64,000 nucleotides of DNA from Candidatus Falkowbacteria bacterium (lineage in GTDB: Bacteria > Patescibacteriota > Patescibacteriia > CAIXNZ01), in NCBI GenBank assembly GCA_963774955.1, contig CAVZGV010000003.1:128771-192770 (forward strand), written 5' to 3'. Below the pieces are notes generated by a model. That model saw only the letters and a list, made by a program, of their open reading frames with translations. It did not search any database and was not told the origin of the DNA. The translations under genes were made by a program, and so were the position numbers. Positions 3,261 to 60,463 of the stretch are shown in pieces (position 1 is the first letter of the stretch; every line of letters begins with the position of its first letter).

Positions 3261-3339
3261 CCAGCTTTGAGCATTGAGCTTTGTGTTTAGAGCTTTTGCC
3301 CTAAGCCCATAGCCCTAAGCTTTAAGCCATTATTTAAAT

Positions 3340-4725
3340 ATGAATCAACGAAATATGTCCGCCAAAGGCGGATCCGCCTCTGGCGGAAAAAAAATACTTC
3401 AAAACATCTTGCGCGATCTAGCCGGAAAAATCTTGAGTTATTTTGCGCGGAAAATTTTGCAAAAATATAAACCGGAAATTGTGGGCATTACCGGCAGTGT
3501 CGGCAAAACTTCAGCTAAAGAGGCGATTTATGCTGTTTTGTCGTCTCAATTTAATGTGCGTCAGAATATTAAAAGCTATAATAATGAAATCGGCACGCCG
3601 TTGACTATAATTGGAGAAGAAACAGGCGGCCGGTCAATTTTCAAATGGCTTAAGGTTTTTTATACTGTTTTTAAATTATTGATAATTAAGGCTAATAATT
3701 ATCCACGGATTTTGGTCCTGGAAATGGGTGCTGATAAAGTCGGTGATATTGAATATCTGGTTAAATTAGCCCCGCCTAAAATCGGGGTTTTAACTGCTAT
3801 AACCGAATCCCATTTGCATATGTTTAAGGACCTAAAGGGAGTTTTAAAGGAAAAGGAAAAGATTGTTACAACCTTACCAAAGGAAGCTGCTGCCTTGCTC
3901 AACGCCGATGATGAATATGTTATGAGTGTGAAAAATAAAATTAAAGCCCGCGTTTTGACTTATGGTTTTGGCGACGAGTCTAATATCAAAGCCGGCGAGA
4001 TTTTATTTACCGGCTTGGAACAGGATTTTTGCGAGACTCAGTATGACTGGGAATGTAAAACCTGGGGTACAAATTTTAAAGTAACTTATAATGGCTCATC
4101 CGTGCCGGTATTTTTACCGCATTGTTTCGGCAAACAGCAGGCTTATGCGGCTTTGGCCGGAATTGCGGCTGGCTTGGTTTATAAAATGAATCTGGTTGAT
4201 ATTGCCGATGCTTTAAAGGAATTTCAGCCGCCTAAAGGCAGAATGAATTTGATTGCCGGGATTAAATATACCCTGATTGTAGATGATACCTATAATTCAT
4301 CTCCGGTGGCGGCTAAGGCAGCGTTGGAAATGTTACAGTCAATAAATTTACCGGCTGGTAAAAGAAAAATCGCTGTTTTGGGAGATATGCTGGAATTAGG
4401 TGACCGCTCAGAATCAGCTCATAGGGAGATAGGATTTAAAGTAGTTGAGTATGGACTTGATAATCTGGTGGCAGTTGGCAAAGAAGCGAAATTAATAGCC
4501 GAGGCAGCCAAAGAAGCCGGCATGCCGGCGGAAAATGTTGAATATTTTGAGGACCGAGATAAGGCCGGTATTTATGTCCAGAATTTGATTGAGAAAGGCG
4601 ATTTGATTTTGGTCAAAGGTTCTCAAGGTATAAGAATGGAAAAAATTGTTCTGGAAATTATGGCAGAGCCTTTAAAGGCAGGGGAGTTGTTGGTCAGGCA
4701 GACAGGGGAATGGCTTAATAAATAA
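3340..4725 (+). CDS. murF: UDP-N-acetylmuramoyl-tripeptide--D-alanyl-D-alanine ligase (MurF), short N-terminus
   Basis: Mur-ligase P-loop ITGSVGKTS, DDTYNSSP (E. coli DDSYNANV) and C-terminal GDMLELG. The first 14 codons are encoded by the double-hairpin repeat cassette. Confidence 0.85.
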   Translation: MNQRNMSAKGGSASGGKKILQNILRDLAGKILSYFARKILQKYKPEIVGITGSVGKTSAKEAIYAVLSSQFNVRQNIKSYNNEIGTPLTIIGEETGGRSIFKWLKVFYTVFKLLIIKANNYPRILVLEMGADKVGDIEYLVKLAPPKIGVLTAITESHLHMFKDLKGVLKEKEKIVTTLPKEAAALLNADDEYVMSVKNKIKARVLTYGFGDESNIKAGEILFTGLEQDFCETQYDWECKTWGTNFKVTYNGSSVPVFLPHCFGKQQAYAALAGIAAGLVYKMNLVDIADALKEFQPPKGRMNLIAGIKYTLIVDDTYNSSPVAAKAALEMLQSINLPAGKRKIAVLGDMLELGDRSESAHREIGFKVVEYGLDNLVAVGKEAKLIAEAAKEAGMPAENVEYFEDRDKAGIYVQNLIEKGDLILVKGSQGIRMEKIVLEIMAEPLKAGELLVRQTGEWLNK

Positions 4726-4940
4726 GTCTAAAGTTTAAAGTCTAAAGTCTGAAGTTTGGAAAATTATTTTAAGGCTTGAAATTTTTTTATTTTAGTGTAA
4801 GATATAACAATATTCAATAACCAATAACTCAATAATCAAACAATAATTAATACCGAATAAGAAAATGTTTTTTTAAATTTTGTTATTTGGTATTTAGATT
4901 TGTTTGGAGCTTGAGATTTGGTTATTGGTTATTAAAGCTA

Positions 4941-5013
4941 GGGCCTCTTCGTCTAGTGGCTAGGACGCATGGTTCTCATCCATGTAACAGGGGTTCGATT
5001 CCCCTAGGGGCTA
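4941..5013 (+). tRNA. tRNA-Glu (anticodon CUC)
   Basis: Hand-folded cloverleaf: acceptor GGCCTCT/AGGGGCT (2 G-U pairs), D arm GTC-TAGTGGCTAG-GAC, anticodon arm CATGG-TTCTCAT-CCATG, T arm AGGGG-TTCGATT-CCCCT. Aligns to E. coli tRNA-Glu. Confidence 0.75.
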
Positions 5014-5027
5014 TTATAAAAAGTTCT

Positions 5028-5094
5028 TCCGCCATAGGCGGACCCGCCTCTGGCGGGCATCCTGGTAATAGGGGTTCGATTCCCCTTGGCGGTA
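5028..5094 (+). ncRNA. degenerate tRNA-like element (tRNA 3'-half copy fused to a double GC hairpin)
   Basis: T arm identical to tRNA-Glu (AGGGGTTCGATTCCCCT). Acceptor-like pairing TCCGCCA/TGGCGGT. Only about 67 nt, with the D and anticodon arms replaced by two 6-bp hairpins (TCCGCC-ATA-GGCGGA, CCCGCC-TCT-GGCGGG). Confidence 0.3.
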
Positions 5095-5146
5095 TTAGCA
5101 ATATTTACTCTCAGACTCAAGGGTCTTTTTTTGTTTATTTGTAGCT

Positions 5147-5181
5147 TGACAAATGTGGTTTTTTTTGTTAAGTTTAGTTGA
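5147..5181 (+). promoter_or_regulatory. candidate sigma70-like promoter for the island operon (TTGACA-17-TAAGTT)
   Basis: TTGACA at 5147-5152 and a weak -10 after 17 nt. Followed by the nested hairpin at 5240-5270 and RBS AAGGGAGG. Confidence 0.3.
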
Positions 5182-7937: not shown

Positions 7938-7979
7938 GCCCCGCACCTCCCGCGTCGCGGGATGGTGCGGGGTTTTCTC
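7938..7979 (+). terminator. nested GC hairpin plus U-run between the AAA and vWA genes (attenuator or partial terminator)
   Basis: CCCCGCACC-[TCCCGCG T CGCGGGA]-GGTGCGGGG followed by TTTTCTC. Confidence 0.5.
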
Positions 7980-15654: not shown

Positions 15655-16880
15655 ATGGAATTGGCTTCTAGCTTAAGAATTGCTTTTACCGGTTTGAAGT
15701 CAAAAAAGACCCGAACATTTTTAACAATGCTCGGGATTATTATTGGCATTTCTTCGGTTATTATGATTATTTCCGTAGGCGCCGGTGCTCAAAGTTTGAT
15801 TTTAAATCAGATTAAAGCTTTGGGTTCAAATCAAATTTCAATTTTTCCTGGTGCTTCAGAAGAATCAGGTCCGCCACCCAGTGTTTTTGGTTCAGCCAAT
15901 ACCAGTTTGAAAATTGATGATATGGAGGCTCTTGATAAACGTCAAAATGTGCCCAATGTCGTGGCTGTTACTTATTATGTCCGTGGTACTGGCTACCATG
16001 ATTTGGCAGGACAATGAATATAACGGTACTTTTGTGGCCACTACAGCCAGTTATCCGGTTGTTCATGATATTAGCGTGGCTGAAGGTCGTTTTATTGATT
16101 CAGATGAGGAAAAAGATCTGGCCAAAGTGGTTGTTTTGGGCGCCAACGTTAAAGCAAGAACTTTTTGGTGATAGCAGATCCTTTGGGTCAGATGATTAAA
16201 ATAAAAAAACATCAGTTTCGGGTTATTGGCGTTATGGCTAAAAAGGGGACTTCTGGTTTTGAAAATCAGGATAATTATGTTTTTATTCCGATTTCAACCG
16301 GCCAAAAAATAATGTTAGGTATTGATTATGTTTCCTTGGCCAGGGTCAAAGTCAATTCGCAGGATAATGTTGATCAGGCAGTTGAGGATATTAAGGCTGT
16401 TTTGCGGGACAGACATAATTTGGATCGCAATGAACTGGATGATTTTACTGTTCGAGCCCAGGCTCAGGCTATTGAAATTTTTTCTTCAATTACTGATTCT
16501 TTAACTTATTTTTTGGCAGCTATTGCCGCGATTTCACTTTTGGTCGGCGGTATCGGTATTATGAATATTATGCTGATTAGTGTGACTGAAAGAACCAGGG
16601 AAATCGGCTTAAGAAAAGCTTTGGGCGCCAAAAGATACAAATATTTTGCAGTCAATTTTTAATTGAATCAATTGCCGTAACTTTGGCCGGCGGAATTATC
16701 GGTATTATTTTTGGATTAGCGGTTTCTTTTTTAGTGGCTTTGATTGCCAGACAGTTGGGTTATGATTGGGATTTGTCATTTCTATTTTCCTCAATATTTT
16801 TTCCTGTACAATTTCCATTTTAGTCGGTTTATTTTTCGGCCTTTACCCGGCCTTCAAAGCCTCGAGAATTAAATCCGATT
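15655..16880 (+). pseudogene. MacB-type FtsX permease copy 1, multiple frameshifts
   Basis: N-terminal TM (TFLTMLGIIIGISSVI), MacB periplasmic domain pieces, and C-terminal FtsX helices spread over 3 or more frames. Confidence 0.6.
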
Positions 16881-16942
16881 GACAGGCTTTGCAATATGAA
16901 TAATATTGGTTAATTAGTTTATTAGTATAATTGGTTATTAGA

Positions 16943-18203
16943 ATGTTTAGAGAATACAAAAATCAATAGAAATAGCCAGGCTGCGATTATACGCCATAAA
17001 TTGCGGGCTGTTTTGACGATTTTGGGCATCACAGTCGGTATTACTGCGGTGATTGTGGTTTTATCTGCTGGTAAAGCAATTGAAGTTATTTATTACTAGC
17101 CAGGTAACTCAGTTTGGCACTGATTGGGTTGAGGTTGAAGTTAAAGTTCCGGCAACCGGCCATGCTTCGCTGGAAAATGCCGGTGGTATGGCTCAGGGCA
17201 TTACCATTACGACCATAAAAGAAAAAGATGCAGAGGAAATTAAAAAGTTTCCAATATTACTGATGTCTATGCCGGTATCAGTCGGCCAGGAAGTTGTGAC
17301 TGTATGAAAATAAAAATAAGATAGCCATGATTTTTGGCGTGACTGAAGGTTTTAGTCGAGTGGATACCGGTGAAATAAATGAAGGACGATTTTTTACTGA
17401 AGCAGAAGATAAGGGCTTGGCCCGGGTGGTAGTTTTAGGCAGTAAGCTCAAAGAAACTTTGTTTGGCGACGAAGACGCTATCGGTAAAACTATTAAAATT
17501 AAAAAATATAATTTTAAAGTAATCGGGGTGATGGCCGAGCGGGGTAGTGCCGGTGTTTTTTCCATGGATGATTTGATTATTATGCCTTTGCGAGTCTTTG
17601 CAAAAATTGATTCAGGGTATTGATTATGTCTCGTTTATTATTGGCAATATGAAGGATAAGTCTTTGGGGAGGAGACGGTTGATGATTTGACTTTATTTAT
17701 TGCGCGATCTACATGATATTACTGATCCTAGTCTGGATGATTTTGCCGTCACGACAGCTGATCAGGCCATGGATATGATTGGATATTATTACCGGGGCGA
17801 TTAAAATTTTACTTTTATGCTCTGGCCTCGAATTTCCTTGGTTGTCGGTGGGGTGGGGATTATGAATGTCATGTACGTTTCAGTGGCTGAACGTACTTTT
17901 GAAATCGGTTTGCGCAAGGCCTTGGGCGCAAAAAATGCTGATATTCAAAGCCAGTTTTTAACTGAAGCCGTGTTTATCACTTTTTTGGGCGGTATCTTTG
18001 GTATTATTTTGGGGGTGTTTATAACCTGGCTAATCAGCTATGTGGCCACTAACTTTTTAAATTTTGACTGGCAGTTTTATTTTTCAATCTCATATTTACT
18101 TTTAGCTTCCGGCATTTCTATTTTTGTGGGATTGGTTTCCGGCCTGTACCCGGCGCGCGCAGCCGCGAATTTGGATCCGATGGTGGCGCTGAGGAAAGAA
18201 TAG
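16943..18203 (+). pseudogene. MacB-type FtsX permease copy 2, multiple frameshifts
   Basis: LRAVLTILGITVGITAVIV N-terminus, periplasmic-domain fragments (track ORFs 17053.. and 17327..) and an intact C-terminal FtsX piece at 17817..18203. Confidence 0.6.
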
Positions 18204-21917: not shown

Positions 21918-23900
<1,983 letters not shown>

Positions 23901-29880: not shown

Positions 29881-30997
29881 ATGAAAAAAACTTTACTTAT
29901 TACCATTGATTTTCCGCCGCAAAAGGGCGGGGTGGCCACATATTTAAGCAATTTGTGTCGTAATTTTGATTCCGGTAAAATTGTGGTTTTGGCCAATAAA
30001 CAGGAAGGGGCTGAACATTTTGATAATAAGCAGCGCTATAAAATAATCAGGGCTCGGCTATTTTGTAAATTTTTCTGGCCGGCGTGGTTACGAACTTTGC
30101 GTCAGGCTAAAAAAGTAATCCGTAAGGAAAAGATTGAACAAATTTTAATTTCACATGTTTTACCCATGGGCTATATTGCTTTACTATTAAAACTGCCCTT
30201 TGTTGTCAGTTTGCACGGTTATGATGTTTTGGCCGCGCAAAAAACCGACTGGAAAAAATATTGGCTGCTGAAAATTTTAACCAAAGCCAAGGCAATTATT
30301 GTTAACAGTAATTTTACTGAAAAAGGAAGTTTTAAAATTGGGTTTGTCTGAACAAAAAATTACTTTGGTTTATCCGTGTCCCAATATAAAGCCGGAAGAT
30401 TTGAATTCCCAGGAGCGTCAGACCTTAAAAACTGAATTGGAACTGCACGGCAAAAAAGTACTTTTATCAGTCGGCCGCTTAGTTCCACGCAAAGGATTTG
30501 ATAAGGTGATTGAGTCATTGTCCGAAGTTATTAAGAAAGTGCCGAATTTACAATATTTAATTGTTGGCAATGGACAATATAAAGATGACCTAGAAAAACT
30601 GGCTTTAAATTTAAAAGTTTTGGACCATTTGACTATTTGCGAAGATATTCCCGATACCAACTTGCCGTCCTATTATGATCTGGCAGATGTTTTTATCATG
30701 CCGGCACGGCAGATTGATGTTTGTGACGTGGAAGGCTTTGGCATTGTCTATCTGGAAGCCAATTCATTCGGCAAACCGGTCATTGCCGGTAAAAGCGGGG
30801 GAGCCAGCGAAGCGGTTATAGACGGCCAAACAGGACTTTTGGTTGATCCGGCCAATGTGAGTGATATTGCTAAGGCGATTACCCAGTTAATGACTAATCA
30901 GGAGTATGCCATGAAATTGGGTGAAAATGGCAAGGCTCGAGTTATGAATGAATTTCAGTGGCTTTTACAAGTTGAGAAATTAAAAAATATATTATGA
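29881..30997 (+). pseudogene. GT4-family glycosyltransferase with one frameshift near 30325
   Basis: N-terminal GT4 domain (track ORF 29881..30351) and C-terminal EX7E-type domain (30299..30997) in different frames. The break is at an A-run. Confidence 0.6.
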
Positions 30998-32174: not shown

Positions 32175-32213
32175 CCCTGTAGGCGACCCCGCGTCGCGGG
32201 GTCGCCTACAGGG
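32175..32213. repeat. 39-bp perfect GC-rich palindrome immediately upstream of the GT2 gene
   Basis: CCCTGTAGGCGACCCCGCG-T-CGCGGGGTCGCCTACAGGG. Shares the core CCGCGTCGCGG with the hairpin at 7938. Confidence 0.7.
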
Positions 32214-35509: not shown

Positions 35510-37312
35510 ATGTTAAATAGTCAAACCGATGAAATAAAATCAAAGGTGGATATTGTAGATATAATATCCGAATACGTCCAGCTCAAGCAGGCCGGAGCCA
35601 ACTGGAAGGCTCCGTGTCCTTTTCATAATGAAAAAACTCCTTCTTTTATGGTTTCCCGAGATAAGCAGATTTTTCATTGTTTCGGCTGTGGGGAAGGCGG
35701 TGATATCTTTACCTTTGTCCAAAAAATTGAAAATGTTGATTTCCCGGAAGCGCTCAATATGCTGGCGCAAAAAGCCGGGGTGAAATTGACCAAGGTTGAT
35801 CCGGCCACAGTTTCCCAAAAGACCAAGTTGATGGATATTTGCCGTTTATCCGCGGAATTTTTTCATAAGGCTCTTTTAAATTCCAAAGAAGGCCAGCTTG
35901 CCCGTAATTATATTACTAAGCGACAGTTAAAGCCTGAAATTGTTGAGGAATTCAAAATTGGTTATGCGCCTGATTCCTGGGATTTGCTTTTAAATTTATT
36001 ACGTAAAAAAGGCTATAAAGATAATGATATTTTATTAGCCGGCATGGTGGTGAAAAATGACCGTGGCCAGCTTTATGACCGTTTCAGGCAACGGCTGATG
36101 TTTCCGATTTTTGATCACAACAGCAATATCGTCGGGTTTACCGGCCGAATTTTGGATGAAAGCAAGGCCAATCAGGGCGGTAAATACGTGAATACTCCGC
36201 AGACTTTGATTTATAATAAAAGCCTGCTGGCTTATGGCTTGGATAAAGCCAAATCAGAAATCAAAAAACAGGATTTAGTCGTAGTCGTCGAAGGCAATAT
36301 GGATGTGGTGGCTTCGCATCAGGCTGGTGTTAAAAACGTGATTGCCTCTTCCGGTACGGCTTTGACACTGGAACAATTGAAAATTTTACAGAGATATACC
36401 AATAATATCGCTTTATCTTTTGACGCTGATCTGGCCGGACAGGTGGCGGCTGAACGTGGTATTGATACAGCTTTATCTTTGGGCATGAATATTAAAGTTA
36501 TTACTTTGCCCAAGGAGATTAAAGGCAAGGTGATCAAAGATCCTGACGATTGTCTTAAAGAAGGGGTGGAATACTGGCAGCAGTCTATTAGCCAGGCCAA
36601 AACTATAATGCAATTTTATTTTGATAAAGTTTTTGTGCAATTTGATAATAATAATCCGCAGGCCAAAAAGGAAATAGCCGCCAAGCTGTTAAAACAGCTG
36701 GCTAAATTAACCGACAAAGTGGAACAAAATCACTGGCTGGGTAATTTAGCGGAAAGGCTGGATGTGCCGCTGACAATTTTGCGGGAAACTTTTAATAATT
36801 ATTTGGATAAAGCCACCGTCCCTCAGCAGCAAATAAAAATTGAGCCTTCAATCCGTAAAAATAGGGAGGAACTTCTGGCCGATCAGCTTTTGGCTTTAGC
36901 CCTGAAATATCCGGAAAACCTGCCTTATATTATCGATCATACTGAAAAAGAAATTATAACCGAGCCTAAGATGGCGAGGGTTTACACCGAGCTTGTTTTA
37001 TACTATAATAAAAGCAATAAGTTTGTTTATTCTGAATTTGAAAAAATATTATCAGAACAAGACAAAGAACTCAGTAATCTACCGGCGACCTTAATGCTTT
37101 TAGCGGACAAGGATTTTTTTGATTTTACTGAGGACAAGATTAAGAGTGAAATAATGAATATAGTAAAAGAATTAAAAAAGAGTCTGCTCAGCCATAAGCT
37201 AAAACAAGTCCAGAAACTCCTAAGCGAGGCGGAAAAAAATAAAGATCAGAAGCAACTGGAGGAATTGGCCAGAGATTTTTCCGCTTTATCCGAACAATTA
37301 CAAATATTATAA
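35510..37312 (+). CDS. dnaG: DNA primase DnaG
   Basis: Zinc ribbon CPFHNEKTPSF...HCFGCG, TOPRIM VVVVEGNMDV and C-terminal helical domains. Confidence 0.9.
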   Translation: MLNSQTDEIKSKVDIVDIISEYVQLKQAGANWKAPCPFHNEKTPSFMVSRDKQIFHCFGCGEGGDIFTFVQKIENVDFPEALNMLAQKAGVKLTKVDPATVSQKTKLMDICRLSAEFFHKALLNSKEGQLARNYITKRQLKPEIVEEFKIGYAPDSWDLLLNLLRKKGYKDNDILLAGMVVKNDRGQLYDRFRQRLMFPIFDHNSNIVGFTGRILDESKANQGGKYVNTPQTLIYNKSLLAYGLDKAKSEIKKQDLVVVVEGNMDVVASHQAGVKNVIASSGTALTLEQLKILQRYTNNIALSFDADLAGQVAAERGIDTALSLGMNIKVITLPKEIKGKVIKDPDDCLKEGVEYWQQSISQAKTIMQFYFDKVFVQFDNNNPQAKKEIAAKLLKQLAKLTDKVEQNHWLGNLAERLDVPLTILRETFNNYLDKATVPQQQIKIEPSIRKNREELLADQLLALALKYPENLPYIIDHTEKEIITEPKMARVYTELVLYYNKSNKFVYSEFEKILSEQDKELSNLPATLMLLADKDFFDFTEDKIKSEIMNIVKELKKSLLSHKLKQVQKLLSEAEKNKDQKQLEELARDFSALSEQLQIL

Positions 37313-50142: not shown

Positions 50143-51345
50143 ATGGTTCAATCAGATATGTCCCGCAAAGCGGGATCCGCCGTTGGCGGAAAAAAAATAT
50201 TTTTAGTCTTAGTTAATATTGCCTTAATTTGCGTTATAGTAATTACGGTTTTTTATTTGTTTTCCAGGCGCACTGAGCTTTTTGCCCAGAGCAGTTTGTC
50301 GTTCGGCAACAAAATTTTAAATGTTAATATACCAGGTCAAATTAAGGAAATAAAAAGAGCCAAGCCGGTGGAGAGGGAAGTTAAGGCCATATATTTAACC
50401 TCTTACTCAGCCAGTGTTCCGGACAGAGTTGATAATTACATTGGACTGATCAAGAAAAGCCAAATTAATGCCGTGGTTATAGATATCAAAGATTATTCCG
50501 GACAGATTGCTTATGACAGCAAGGTTCCGTTGGTTGAAGAATTGCAGACCGACCGCAATCTGATTAAGGATTTATCAGGGGTTATTAAAAAATTTCACGA
50601 TAATGATATTTATGTCATTGCCAGGCAGACAGTCTTTCAGGATCCGGAACTTTCAGGTAAAAAGCCCGAATGGGCGGTTAAAAATTCCGCGACCGGCGGA
50701 GTTTGGAAAGATAATAAGGGACTGGGCTGGTTAGATGCTTCAAAACAGGAAGTCTGGCAATATAATATTGATATTGCCAGAGAAGCAATCAGGCTGGGTT
50801 TTGATGAAATTAATTTTGATTATATCCGTTTTCCTTCCGACGGTCCGATGAAACTGATGCAGTTTAGTAATATGAATGGACGAACTAAAGCTGAAGTCAT
50901 GACGGACTTTTTTAAATATTTATATGAAAATTTAAAATCAGAACCGGCCTATATATCCGGGGATTTATTCGGCTTTACGACTGAACGTACCGATGATATG
51001 AATATCGGTCAGCAGATTGAAGACGCGGCTTTATATTTTGATTATGTCTGTCCCATGGTTTATCCGTCACATTATCCCAGCGGTTATCTGAATCTGAAAA
51101 ATCCAGCGGCCGAACCTTACAAAGTAGTAAAATTCGCTTTAACCAAAGGCGAGGAAAGTTTAGCCTTAGTGCCAGATGTCCGCGCCAAAATTAGGCCGTG
51201 GCTGCAGTCTTTTGATATGGGAGCCGTATATACCTCGGCTATGATTGAAGATCAGATTCGGGCAGGCCAAGAAGCCGGCAGTTACGGCTATTTGCTCTGG
51301 AATGCCAGGAATGTCTATAAATATCTGCCTGCGGTAAAAAAGTGA
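50143..51345 (+). CDS. membrane-anchored putative glycoside-hydrolase-like TIM-barrel protein (GHL10/DUF4015-like)
   Basis: TM helix plus KAIYLTSYSAS...INAVVIDIKD...FDEINFDYIRFP. The N-terminal 19 codons come from the double-hairpin cassette. Confidence 0.4.
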   Translation: MVQSDMSRKAGSAVGGKKIFLVLVNIALICVIVITVFYLFSRRTELFAQSSLSFGNKILNVNIPGQIKEIKRAKPVEREVKAIYLTSYSASVPDRVDNYIGLIKKSQINAVVIDIKDYSGQIAYDSKVPLVEELQTDRNLIKDLSGVIKKFHDNDIYVIARQTVFQDPELSGKKPEWAVKNSATGGVWKDNKGLGWLDASKQEVWQYNIDIAREAIRLGFDEINFDYIRFPSDGPMKLMQFSNMNGRTKAEVMTDFFKYLYENLKSEPAYISGDLFGFTTERTDDMNIGQQIEDAALYFDYVCPMVYPSHYPSGYLNLKNPAAEPYKVVKFALTKGEESLALVPDVRAKIRPWLQSFDMGAVYTSAMIEDQIRAGQEAGSYGYLLWNARNVYKYLPAVKK

Positions 51346-55896: not shown

Positions 55897-58323
55897 ATGG
55901 CTGAAGTAACACCGATGCTCAAACAATACCGGGCGATCAAGGATCAGCATAAAGACTGTATCCTGTTTTTTCGCTTGGGAGATTTTTATGAAATGTTTGG
56001 CCCCGATGCCATGGAAGCTTCTAAAATTTTAAATATTACTCTGACCGCCCGAGGCAAGGGGACTGTTAATGAAGTGCCCATGTGCGGGGTGCCCTATCAT
56101 GCTGCCGAAGGCTATATTGCCAAATTAACCAGAGCCGGGAAGAAGGTCGCGATTTGCGAACAAATGACTGACCCGAGTTTGCCTGGTATTGTGGAACGGG
56201 ATGTGATCAGGATAATTACCCCGGGGACAACTTTGGATAATAATATTTTGGATAATAAAAGAAATAATTATCTTGTTTCTTTGGTGAACAAGGATAATCT
56301 TTGGGGTTTAGCTTTTGTGGACTTAACTACCGGCGAATTTAAGCTGGCGGAAATCCGCAAGCTGGATGATTTGATTAATGAACTTGGCAGAATCATGCCC
56401 ACGGAAATTATAGTCACTCCTGATTTGCATGAAAATTTGCAGCTAGTTACCAAACTAAAAAATTTAAGCAGCGTAAATATATTTTATCCCGCGATTTTCA
56501 AGTCAGCGCCTGAAACCTTACTGGAACATTTTAAAGTAAAATCCCTGCAGAGTTTTGGTATTGAGAAATCTTTAATCGGGCTTGAGGCGGCCGGTAATTT
56601 GGTTAATTACTTGAAAGATACCCAGAAAACTTCCCTGGAACATATTAATAAACTTGGCTCTCTACAATATTTCCGATTACATGATTCTGGATGAGGCCAC
56701 GATTCGAAATTTGGAACTTTTATATACTTATCAGCTTTTTGAACAAAAAGGATCTTTAATTTCCATTCTTGATCAGACGCAAACCGGTATGGGCGGTCGG
56801 CTTATTGCGCAACTGGCTTTTACATCCGTTAATTAAGGCTGAAAAGGTTCAGGCGCGTTTGGAAGCAGTTGCGGAATTTTATAATAATTTAGATTTGCGG
56901 GAAAATCTGAAAGGCGAATTGAAGAATATGGCTGATATTGAACGTCTGATCGGTCGGTTGGGCTGTAAGCGAGCAAATGCGCGTGATTTGGTTAATCTGA
57001 AAAACTCTTTACAGCAAATTCCGCAGATTAAGAGTCTGGCTTAAAAATTGTGATTCAAAATTATTAAAGGATAGTTATAAATATTTGGATGACCACAAAG
57101 AAGTCGTTGAATTAATCCAAAAATCAATTGCGGAAGATCCGCCTTTAATTAATTACTGACGGCGGCATGATTGCTGACGGTTATAATTCAGAACTTGGAT
57201 GAATTAAGGAAAATTTCAACTTCCGGTAAAGATTGGCTCAGTGATTTACAAACCCGGGAGGCGCAAAGAACCGGAATTTCTTCCTTAAAAGTTAAATTTA
57301 ATAAAATATTCGGTTATTACATTGAAGTTACCAATTCCAATTTGGCCCAGGTACCGACTGATTATACCCGCAAGCAAACTTTAGTTAATGCGGAGCGATT
57401 TGTGACGCCGGAACTGAAAGAATACGAACAAAAGGTTTTGGGCGCTCAGGAACAGATTATCGAAATAGAACAACGTCTATTCTGGGAAATACGAGATGCA
57501 GGTGGCCAAACATTTTGAAGCCATTCAGGCCACTGCGCAGGTTTTGGCTCAGCTGGATGTGCTTCTGAATTTTGCCAATATCGCTTTATTGAATAATTAT
57601 GTTAAACCTGAAATAAATGACGGGGGAGTGGTAATAATTAAAAATGGACGTCATCCGGTGATTGAAAAGTTACTGACCGAAGAATCTTATGTGCCCAATG
57701 ACGGTCTATTTAATCATGAAGACCATCAGTTGATTTTACTGACCGGCCCTAATATGAGCGGTAAGTCCAGTTATCTGCGCCAGACTGCCTTGATTATTTT
57801 ATTGGCGCAGATCGGTTGCTTTGTTCCGGCTGAGGCAGCTAAGATTGGAATAGTTGACAGAATTTTTACCCGTGTCGGCGCGTCTGATAATTTAATCCGC
57901 GGCCAGTCAACTTTTATGGTGGAAATGCAGGAAGCAGCCAATATTTTAAATAATGCCACCAGTAAAAGTTTTATTGTCCTGGACGAACTAGGCAGGGGAA
58001 CCTCAACTTACGACGGTGTGTCCATTGCCTGGGCCATTGTGGAATTTATTTATAAAAATATCAAAGCCAAGACTTTATTTGCCACGCATTATCATGAATT
58101 GATTGATTTAGTGGCCAAGCTTGATAAAGCCAAGAATTACTGTGTCAGTGTTAAAGAAACAGATACTGGTGTTATCTTTTTACGTAAAGTTATGCCAGGC
58201 GGGATTGACCGTTCCTATGGCATTGAAGTCGCTAAGTTGGCCGGCCTGCCCAAGGCTTTGACGGATAGGGCGTATGAAATTTTGGCGGAGCTAGAAAGTG
58301 AAATTAAAATAACGAAAAAATAA
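55897..58323 (+). pseudogene. mutS: DNA mismatch repair MutS, at least 5 frameshifts
   Basis: N-terminal mismatch-binding domain (TPMLKQYRAIKDQHKDCILFFRLGDFYEMFG), connector, lever/clamp and an intact C-terminal ATPase ([13 protein letters not shown]; DELGRGTST) spread over 5-6 frame segments (track ORFs 55897.., 56654.., 56769.., 57171.., 57496..). Confidence 0.8.
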
Positions 58324-60286: not shown

Positions 60287-60433
60287 TTGCTACCTCCATT
60301 GTAATGATTTTTTAGTATATCGTAAGTTGAAAAAAAAGTCAATAATTGATATTGTTACATATATACAAATCAGCTACGAATTTACAAATATAGTAATTTT
60401 TTTAAAAAATTCGTAGATCTGTATCTTATCCGT

Positions 60434-60463
60434 TCCGCGTAGCGGAATGCCGCTCCGCGGCGT
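60434..60463 (+). promoter_or_regulatory. double GC hairpin immediately upstream of mutL (same family as at 3358, 5028 and 50161)
   Basis: TTCCGC-GTA-GCGGAA followed by GCCGC-TCC-GCGGC. Confidence 0.45.

Follow-up and report, generated by a model that had tools for sequence, protein, structure and literature searches.

Several families of short hairpin-forming DNA resemble the element described here, a 30-bp pair of abutting GC-rich hairpins present four times in a 64,000-bp stretch (hereafter the window) of a Candidatus Falkowbacteria contig (CAVZGV010000003.1, positions 128,771 to 192,770). Rickettsia palindromic elements (RPEs), about 100-150 bp long and confined to Rickettsia, are selfish palindromes found also in non-coding DNA, whose in-frame insertion into genes is tolerated as an extra peptide; each of these traits has a parallel here. 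The mitochondrial double-hairpin elements of Allomyces and chytrids, and the GC clusters and 'byp' elements of yeast, are organellar, lineage-specific and variable in length (~26-80 bp). With the present element they share a short, GC-rich form made of two adjacent hairpins in AT-rich genomes, dispersal in spacers, RNA genes and occasionally coding genes, and a mobility inferred from presence and absence; to our knowledge, their means of movement is still unresolved. Another likeness is to the RAYT-mobilised REP, BIME and REPIN sequences, GC-rich palindromes of 20-40 nt that are often paired and that a trans-acting enzyme is believed to process in folded, single-stranded form. A GTAG or CGTC tag at one end marks REPs, which are extragenic and species-specific (PMC3733652). 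Finally, the IS200/IS605-derived palindrome-associated elements (PATEs) have hairpin ends, no target duplication and scarless empty sites of the kind expected from seamless excision, as does the element in the window.

The four loci in the window are probably copies of a miniature, selfish, structure-defined mobile DNA element (Table 1). The window has a GC content of 40%, and the nearest relatives of its proteins are named Candidatus Parcubacteria. An earlier note on this DNA had listed four hairpin-pair sequences, all of which were found. The pattern TCCSSCNNNGSSGGAYCCGCCNNNGGCGGR matches copies 1-3, against 0.00 matches expected by chance (100 dinucleotide shuffles). GC-rich hairpins with a 5-bp stem and a 3-nt loop number 17 against 4.4 expected, and there are four directly abutting hairpin pairs against none across 150 Markov simulations. 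With a covariance model (R1) derived from 72 distinct copies in the databases, copies 1-3 reach 45-56 bits (copy 1 at 55-56, copy 2 at 49-50, copy 3 at 45-46). Scanned over the window with filters off, R1 does not match copy 4 at E<=10 and adds no other convincing copy; weak matches at 36081, 23734 and 63562 resemble chance or coding low complexity and were rejected. Copies 1-3 are one sequence family, while copy 4 shares their 6-3-6/6-3-6 layout with different stems. Copy 4 is nonetheless an exact 30-nt insertion of the same architecture, best placed at 60433-60462, one base before the position given in the earlier note.

Table 1. Copies of the double-hairpin element in the window and the features that adjoin them
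Feature	Position	Strand	Context
15-nt leader AATCAACGAAATATG	3343..3357	+	with copy 1 forms the 45-bp module between the murF ATG (3340-3342) and an A-run (3388-3395)
Copy 1, canonical 30-mer, TCCGCC-AAA-GGCGGA/TCCGCC-TCT-GGCGGA	3358..3387	+	murF codons 7-16, reads SAKGGSASGG
Intact tRNA-Glu(CTC), different acceptor stem	4942..5013	+	ARAGORN, Rfam; context only, outside the element
Copy 2, TCCGCC-ATA-GGCGGA/CCCGCC-TCT-GGCGGG	5028..5057	+	second hairpin closed by C-G; inserted at TTCT/CAT in the tRNA-Glu(CTC) anticodon loop
tRNA-Glu(CTC) 3' half: anticodon-loop 3' part, T arm, acceptor strand TGGCGGT	5058..5094	+	adjoins copy 2
15-nt leader GTTCAATCAGATATG of the copy 3 45-bp module	50146..50160	+	directly after the ATG at 50143 (alignment)
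Copy 3, TCCCGC-AAA-GCGGGA/TCCGCC-GTT-GGCGGA	50161..50190	+	codons 7-16 of the DUF4015/GHL gene, reads SRKAGSAVGG
Copy 4, TTCCGC-GTA-GCGGAA/TGCCGC-TCC-GCGGCG	60433..60462	+	diverged stems; spacer, 15 nt upstream of the mutL ATG (60478)

In the unit, two hairpins directly abut, both built of a 6-bp GC stem and a 3-nt loop, and its consensus, t-T-t TCCGCC-NRA-GGCGGA/TCCGCC-TYN-GGCGGA a-A-a, is nearly palindromic overall. Insertion blocks measure exactly 30 bp, or 45 bp in this Parcubacteria lineage, where the module inserted in murF and the DUF4015 gene immediately follows the ATG and is made up of the 30-mer preceded by a 15-nt leader. The element tends to sit between T-rich and A-rich bases (T at -2 in 79% of copies, A at +2 in 84%). 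Within the loops, A occupies position 9 in 95% of copies and T occupies position 22 in 96%, and the two loops are fully complementary to each other in just 17 of 126.

Covariation across the 72 distinct copies favours tandem hairpins as the probable structure over one long hairpin. Counted as sequences rather than independent events, in a sample drawn with a sequence pattern, the tandem fold has 99.1% of cells paired, 40 double-change cells in nine pairs and a covariation score of 0.157, against 96.1%, 11 and 0.070 for the long fold, in which 15 sequences leave the outer pair open and 14 form a wobble there. The pair closing hairpin 2 (positions 16/30) is TA in 93 copies, CG in 25, TG in four and CA in four, and the first hairpin of copy 3 also carries compensatory changes. 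The compensatory stem changes described in the earlier note are thus real and support base pairing. Its two-stem fold agrees with the covariation, although the minimum-energy fold of copies 1, 2 and 4 is one long hairpin; canonical copies in general have this fold (-22 to -26 kcal/mol), and copy 3 prefers two hairpins. The same geometry occurs with other stems, for example CCACCC (L086), TCAGCC (L109), TCCGCT (L032) and CCCTCC (L073). Non-canonical pairs abutting at the exact spacing number six (five in database loci, plus copy 4) against an estimated ~0.1 expected, and copy 4 is a member of this looser class.

All four window copies are insertions. In murF, DNA alignment reveals an exact 45-bp gap in locus L121 (orthologue P0003, protein 86% identical), corresponding to AATCAACAAAATATG plus the 30-mer between the ATG and the A-run, with homologous DNA on both sides. 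The same site is filled in L122, L123, L124, L134 and L140. Most MurF orthologues begin M-KK-ILQ and a few begin M(NQQNM)SAKGGSASGG-KK; the window protein begins MNQRNM-SAKGGSASGG-KK. In the MurF tree, four filled and six empty orthologues are interleaved within one clade, which requires either several precise losses or several gains at one site. The DUF4015 gene encodes a membrane-anchored, glycoside-hydrolase-like protein with the N-terminus MVQSDM-SRKAGSAVGG-KK. It is empty in L126 (P0122, 84% identical; M-KKLFLV) and carries the canonical module MNQQNMSAKGGSASGG at the identical point in L125 (P0140, 67% identical). Upstream of mutL, three relatives (L149, L150 and L151; MutL 82-84% identical to that of the window) read CCG/TAG, and the window reads CCG/TTCCGCGTAGCGGAATGCCGCTCCGCGGCG/TAA, exactly 30 extra bases. 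No target-site duplication is present in the filled/empty alignments of these three sites, and the wider set shows no enrichment of direct repeats in the flanks, where identical 2- to 5-mers occur at 0-2 of 126 sites. The placement of the copies at gene 5' ends, as the earlier note had described it, holds for copy 4, whereas copies 1 and 3 lie within the first codons of their open reading frames (ORFs) and not upstream of them.

The 45-bp module is found at a third gene (L126:385); outside murF, the murF leader is present at L125:10004 and L126:388. A metagenome scan with the leader returned 19 matches, 17 of them chance and two genuine; as the two were further murF orthologues, the module is lineage-restricted. 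The window murF also has an extra in-frame 24-nt segment at 3415-3438 (DLAGKILS), absent from its orthologues (first 60 N-termini), which looks as if the next codons, YFARKILQ, had been duplicated in tandem and had then diverged.

The copy that the earlier note had assigned to a tRNA-like element does lie inside tRNA sequence, which proves to be half of a tRNA-Glu whose anticodon is interrupted; the idea of a complete but odd tRNA at this position was rejected. The flanks of copy 2, GTTCT and CATCC..., are the two sides of the tRNA-Glu anticodon loop. Copy 2 starts 14 nt past the intact tRNA-Glu(CTC) and abuts a second T-arm/acceptor segment, and the 5' half of the tRNA-Glu(CTC) that it broke is absent from the window. 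When the 5' half at L123:4059-4093 is joined to the window 3' half without the element, ARAGORN finds a 72-nt tRNA-Glu(ctc); with the element kept, it calls nothing. Both halves of the disrupted gene are present in L123, each abutting a copy of the element, and L124 contains an uninterrupted orthologue (2851-2923). Similar insertions occur elsewhere. A tandemly repeated tRNA-Glu-like unit in a member of the Saccharibacteria (L010 1-240, minus strand) carries the double hairpin at the same TTCT/CAT anticodon-loop site as in the window, and in L107 (2392-2560) two tandem tRNA-Arg 5' fragments each have the element in the D-loop, with an intact tRNA-Arg(tcg) downstream.

Two further features of these tRNA loci can be recorded. 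In L123 (4059-4563), a small ORF that is GIY-YIG-like by eye and an intact tRNA-Glu lie between two GGTTCT-element-CATCCT copies, an arrangement that looks like a cassette replacing the broken tRNA through recombination at the element. In the repeated unit of L010, the D-loop and the 5' end also carry single TCCGCC hairpins.

Run against 185,579 species-representative genomes, the 30-mer pattern identified at least 120 carrier loci, with 126 distinct sites and unrelated flanks. As labelled by their records, the carriers include many lineages of the candidate phyla radiation (CPR), Omnitrophota, Kiritimatiellae, Planctomycetota, Verrucomicrobiota, Lentisphaerae, Ignavibacteriota, Bacteroidota, Chloroflexota, Firestonebacteria, some Firmicutes and some Proteobacteria, and the GC content of the carrier loci ranges from 0.35 to 0.70. 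Among the matches listed, all 80 records are metagenome-assembled genomes (MAGs) or single-amplified genomes (SAGs). Mis-binning of CPR contigs is made less likely by copies in contexts peculiar to their hosts, for instance the C-terminal domains of type IX secretion in Ignavibacteriota and Bacteroidota. The element was not found in 72,556 plasmid (PLSDB) or 50,697 phage (GenBank) records, and IMG/VR has three occurrences in 2.9 million contigs. Full-text searches of an incomplete library found no description of it, the strings matching only cloning primers and artificial linkers. The family seems to be undescribed, unusually small and unusually widespread. Of the possibilities raised in the earlier note, a miniature mobile repeat is the one backed by the precise empty and filled sites, the tRNA anticodon insertion, the dispersed copies with unrelated flanks and the many phyla. 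Both the further copies and the covariation on which that note had made its reading depend were found.

Several spacers in these genomes contain low-complexity, imperfectly palindromic short-period repeats (window 3261-3330, upstream of murF in L122 and L123, and in L077, L100 and L120), examples being gagcattgagctttg...ccctaagccc and gttacaggtttcaggtt. Such repeats have the element at their centre in some Omnitrophota loci.

Many copies lie within genes. Since 30 is a multiple of three and both strands read alike, one frame (frame 0) encodes the flexible peptide S-A-x-G-G-S-A-x-G-G; the other two read P-P-x-A-D-P-P-x-A-E and R-x-x-R-I-R-x-x-R, and the three frames are identical on both strands. 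In stop-free frames of at least 300 codons, 46 of 53 copies are in frame 0 (p ~1e-15). Open frames of at least 200 codons contain 70 of 127 copies, 56 of the 70 in frame 0. Insertions of 10 or 15 residues are seen relative to orthologues. The sites of coding copies include N-termini, the DnaJ G/F region, an E2 lipoyl linker, valyl-tRNA synthetase (ValRS), UvrC and secretion-tail domains. Compact genomes of this kind are expected to have a small non-coding fraction, a share that is likely exceeded by the copies outside any open frame of at least 100 codons (26/127). Coding copies have an orientation bias of 25:9, for which selection on the peptide (Ser/Lys over Phe/Arg) can account. We infer that insertion is random and is followed by purifying selection. 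Insertions in the other two frames and at intolerant positions would be removed, and it is this purging that would leave the excess at N-termini, linkers and spacers.

Some positions recur in independent genomes. The ValRS site GYF/../NPD is occupied in both L043 (4924) and L053, and in type IX secretion tails the recurrent sites are PNPF/../NP and F/../..LASGVYFY (L041, L060 and L098; L030 and L056). This suggests either a hot spot of the TTT/AAT type or spread through domain duplication. In L030, a Bacteroidota MAG, a canonical copy (1239-1268) has an in-frame TGA in loop 1 of an otherwise intact secretion-tail ORF. It reads NYPNPF/SA-stop-GGSAFGG/NPETK..., and the downstream frame is open for 73 codons. 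A recent knock-out, read-through or bypass are all possible, and given this TGA, ribosomes or RNA processing may skip the element. Frame 0 is open in nearly all copies, so translational bypass of the Magnusiomyces type is unneeded here.

The enzyme that would move the element is expected to act in trans and to recognise the hairpin pair in its folded state, as suggested by the retention of the element's architecture while stem sequences change. The two-fold symmetry of the element and its flanks, together with the absence of orientation bias in spacers, suggests that this putative enzyme would itself be two-fold symmetric and structure-recognising. A one-sided target preference was rejected because the flank preferences are symmetric. 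Insertion at the apex of longer flanking inverted repeats was also rejected as a general rule, since it is seen in only ~24% of copies, compared with 14% for the controls. A possible autonomous element between single hairpins in L050 was discarded too, the pair lying inside uvrC without a transposase. The 45-bp module at ATG/AAAAAA sites is probably a lineage-specific derivative; its leader holds the hairpins ~18 nt downstream of the start codon, so that initiation would remain possible. Some copies may have been co-opted, the conserved start-codon module being an example.

The element differs from each of the described systems. It is set apart from RPEs by length, host range and apparently sequence, being 30 bp long and present in many phyla. 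The mitochondrial elements are alike in form only, as here a fixed 30-bp length and one sequence recur on bacterial chromosomes across phyla. Unlike REPs, the element is multi-phylum and often intragenic (window copies 1 and 3 among them). The GTAG or CGTC end tag is absent from its flank and end logos (T-T-T/TCCGCC and GGCGGA/A-A-A), and Pfam scans of the ~50 larger ORFs of the 64-kb window found no RAYT (TnpA_REP) gene. It does not belong to the MITEs (miniature inverted-repeat transposable elements), having no target-site duplication and also the wrong size. PATEs insert 3' of a fixed tetra- or pentanucleotide; here, in the Parcubacteria relatives, TATG stands before each of the 45-bp module sites and before one plain 30-mer, and the family at large shows only symmetric T-rich/A-rich flanks. 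PATEs differ further in that the present element leaves no room for guide sequences between cleavage site and hairpin, shows no orientation bias in spacers and has no tnpA in the window.

Several observations weigh against a mobile element. Pfam scans of the same ORFs found no transposase, nuclease, HUH, GIY-YIG or HNH domain. Spacer copies lack an orientation bias, eight being oriented with the neighbouring genes and 11 opposite, and a strand-specific route of the IS200/IS605 type is therefore unsupported. Stems that are identical from phylum to phylum would require horizontal transfer on a very wide scale or else a conserved host factor, and the figure of at least 120 loci is a lower bound that gives no per-genome abundance. 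In addition, the five orthologous murF copies are more conserved in the stems (96.7% identity) and leader (94.7%) than in the loops (73%) or the next 27 coding nucleotides (79.6%). This fits host-level constraint as well as it fits repeated re-insertion: either there is constraint at the nucleotide level, or the site has repeatedly received insertions from slightly different master copies.

That conservation belongs to the best-surviving alternative, in which the copies are an RNA or single-stranded DNA structure kept by the host because it is useful, for example in translation initiation, mRNA stability or RNA processing. The compensatory stem changes are equally expected of it, both stem changes in the L124 murF copy yield G-U pairs on the sense strand, and three of the four window copies are within 20 nt of a start codon. 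We nevertheless consider it unlikely. Close relatives lack the copies at all three genes and are otherwise unchanged, and the wider set has no common gene context, spanning proteins, spacers and tRNA genes, the last of which are destroyed by the insertion. Nor does any Rfam family match: only tRNAs reach the gathering score in the window, none covers the whole element at E<=10 (3300-5150), and weak matches at 5043-5095 and 5046-5093 (E 1.4-1.6) are centred on the tRNA half and clip the 3' end of copy 2. The element was also rejected as an intrinsic (Rho-independent) terminator because on either strand a T-run precedes it and an A-run follows. A regulatory role as its primary nature is thus not supported, and neither is the regulatory signal or operator at gene 5' ends that the earlier note had entertained, in view of copies anywhere in proteins, tRNA genes and spacers and of their patchy presence among close relatives.

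A more specific form of the same idea is an operator for a dimeric or tetrameric protein that reads TCCGCC/GGCGGA half-sites in double-stranded DNA. Each 15-mer is indeed a 6-3-6 palindrome, the centre AGGCGGATCCGCCT is a 14-bp palindrome, and the stem sequence itself, beyond its pairing, is highly conserved across phyla. The two arms change together, as in TCCCGC/GCGGGA, TCCGCT/AGCGGG, CCCTCC/GGAGGG and C-G for T-A at 16/30, and such variants, which destroy a half-site, would not be tolerated by a half-site reader. With about half of the copies inside coding sequence and their presence varying among close relatives, an operator is highly improbable.

An uptake or recombination signal accumulated through molecular drive in naturally competent bacteria would share with known uptake sequences a short motif present in coding and non-coding DNA with a frame preference, and CPR bacteria are thought to depend on DNA uptake. 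The copies, however, are 30-bp insertions and not motifs built by point mutation, their density in the window (~1 per 16 kb) is far under the roughly 1 per kb of known uptake sequences, and the sequence is identical in unrelated phyla; we give this explanation very little credence.

The last possibility, an N-terminal peptide tag (M-N-Q-x-N-M-S-A-K-G-G-S-A-S-G-G-K-K) selected in the protein, or else an assembly or sequencing artefact, could appeal to the 15-residue N-terminus common to MurF, the DUF4015 protein and a third protein, or to the fact that every listed carrier is a MAG or SAG, but is hardly credible given that the non-synonymous changes of copy 3 (A to R with G to A) preserve pairing, in a genome of 40% GC the synonymous sites are frozen, tRNA genes and spacers contain copies as well, and frame selection would not arise from an artefact, nor would recurrence across independent assemblies from NCBI, ENA, JGI and Logan, one of them with a 1.6-Mb contig.

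If the reading as a mobile element is correct, it would be among the smallest and most widely distributed mobile elements known, a bacterial counterpart of the mitochondrial double-hairpin and GC-cluster elements. It would account for the low-complexity SAxGGSAxGG stretch that recurs in proteins predicted from CPR and other uncultured bacteria, show how tRNA genes and gene starts are remodelled in small genomes, and point to an enzyme by which DNA hairpins are recognised in the folded state and seamlessly inserted or removed. It would also serve as a practical marker for start-codon gene-calling errors and for alignment artefacts in the phylogenomics of carrier lineages. More tentatively, the copies could represent an undescribed class of ultra-small mobile DNA, a structure-defined 30-bp unit that travels inside and among the genomes of many phyla, is moved by a hairpin-specific enzyme without target duplication and routinely writes S-A-x-G-G-S-A-x-G-G into proteins.

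Two other features of the window are of minor interest. In Pfam searches, dnaK (21930-23571), mutS (55897-58320), macB/ftsX (15655-18200) and a GT4 glycosyltransferase gene (29881-30994) each appear split into two or three consecutive ORFs, either by frameshift errors in a long assembly, the source contig measuring 565,549 bp, or as real pseudogenes. Two longer GC hairpins, at 7941-7970 and 32176-32206, have the common core CCCGCGTCGCGGG; the first lies between an ORF stop and a T-run, which makes it terminator-like, and the second is without a T-run.

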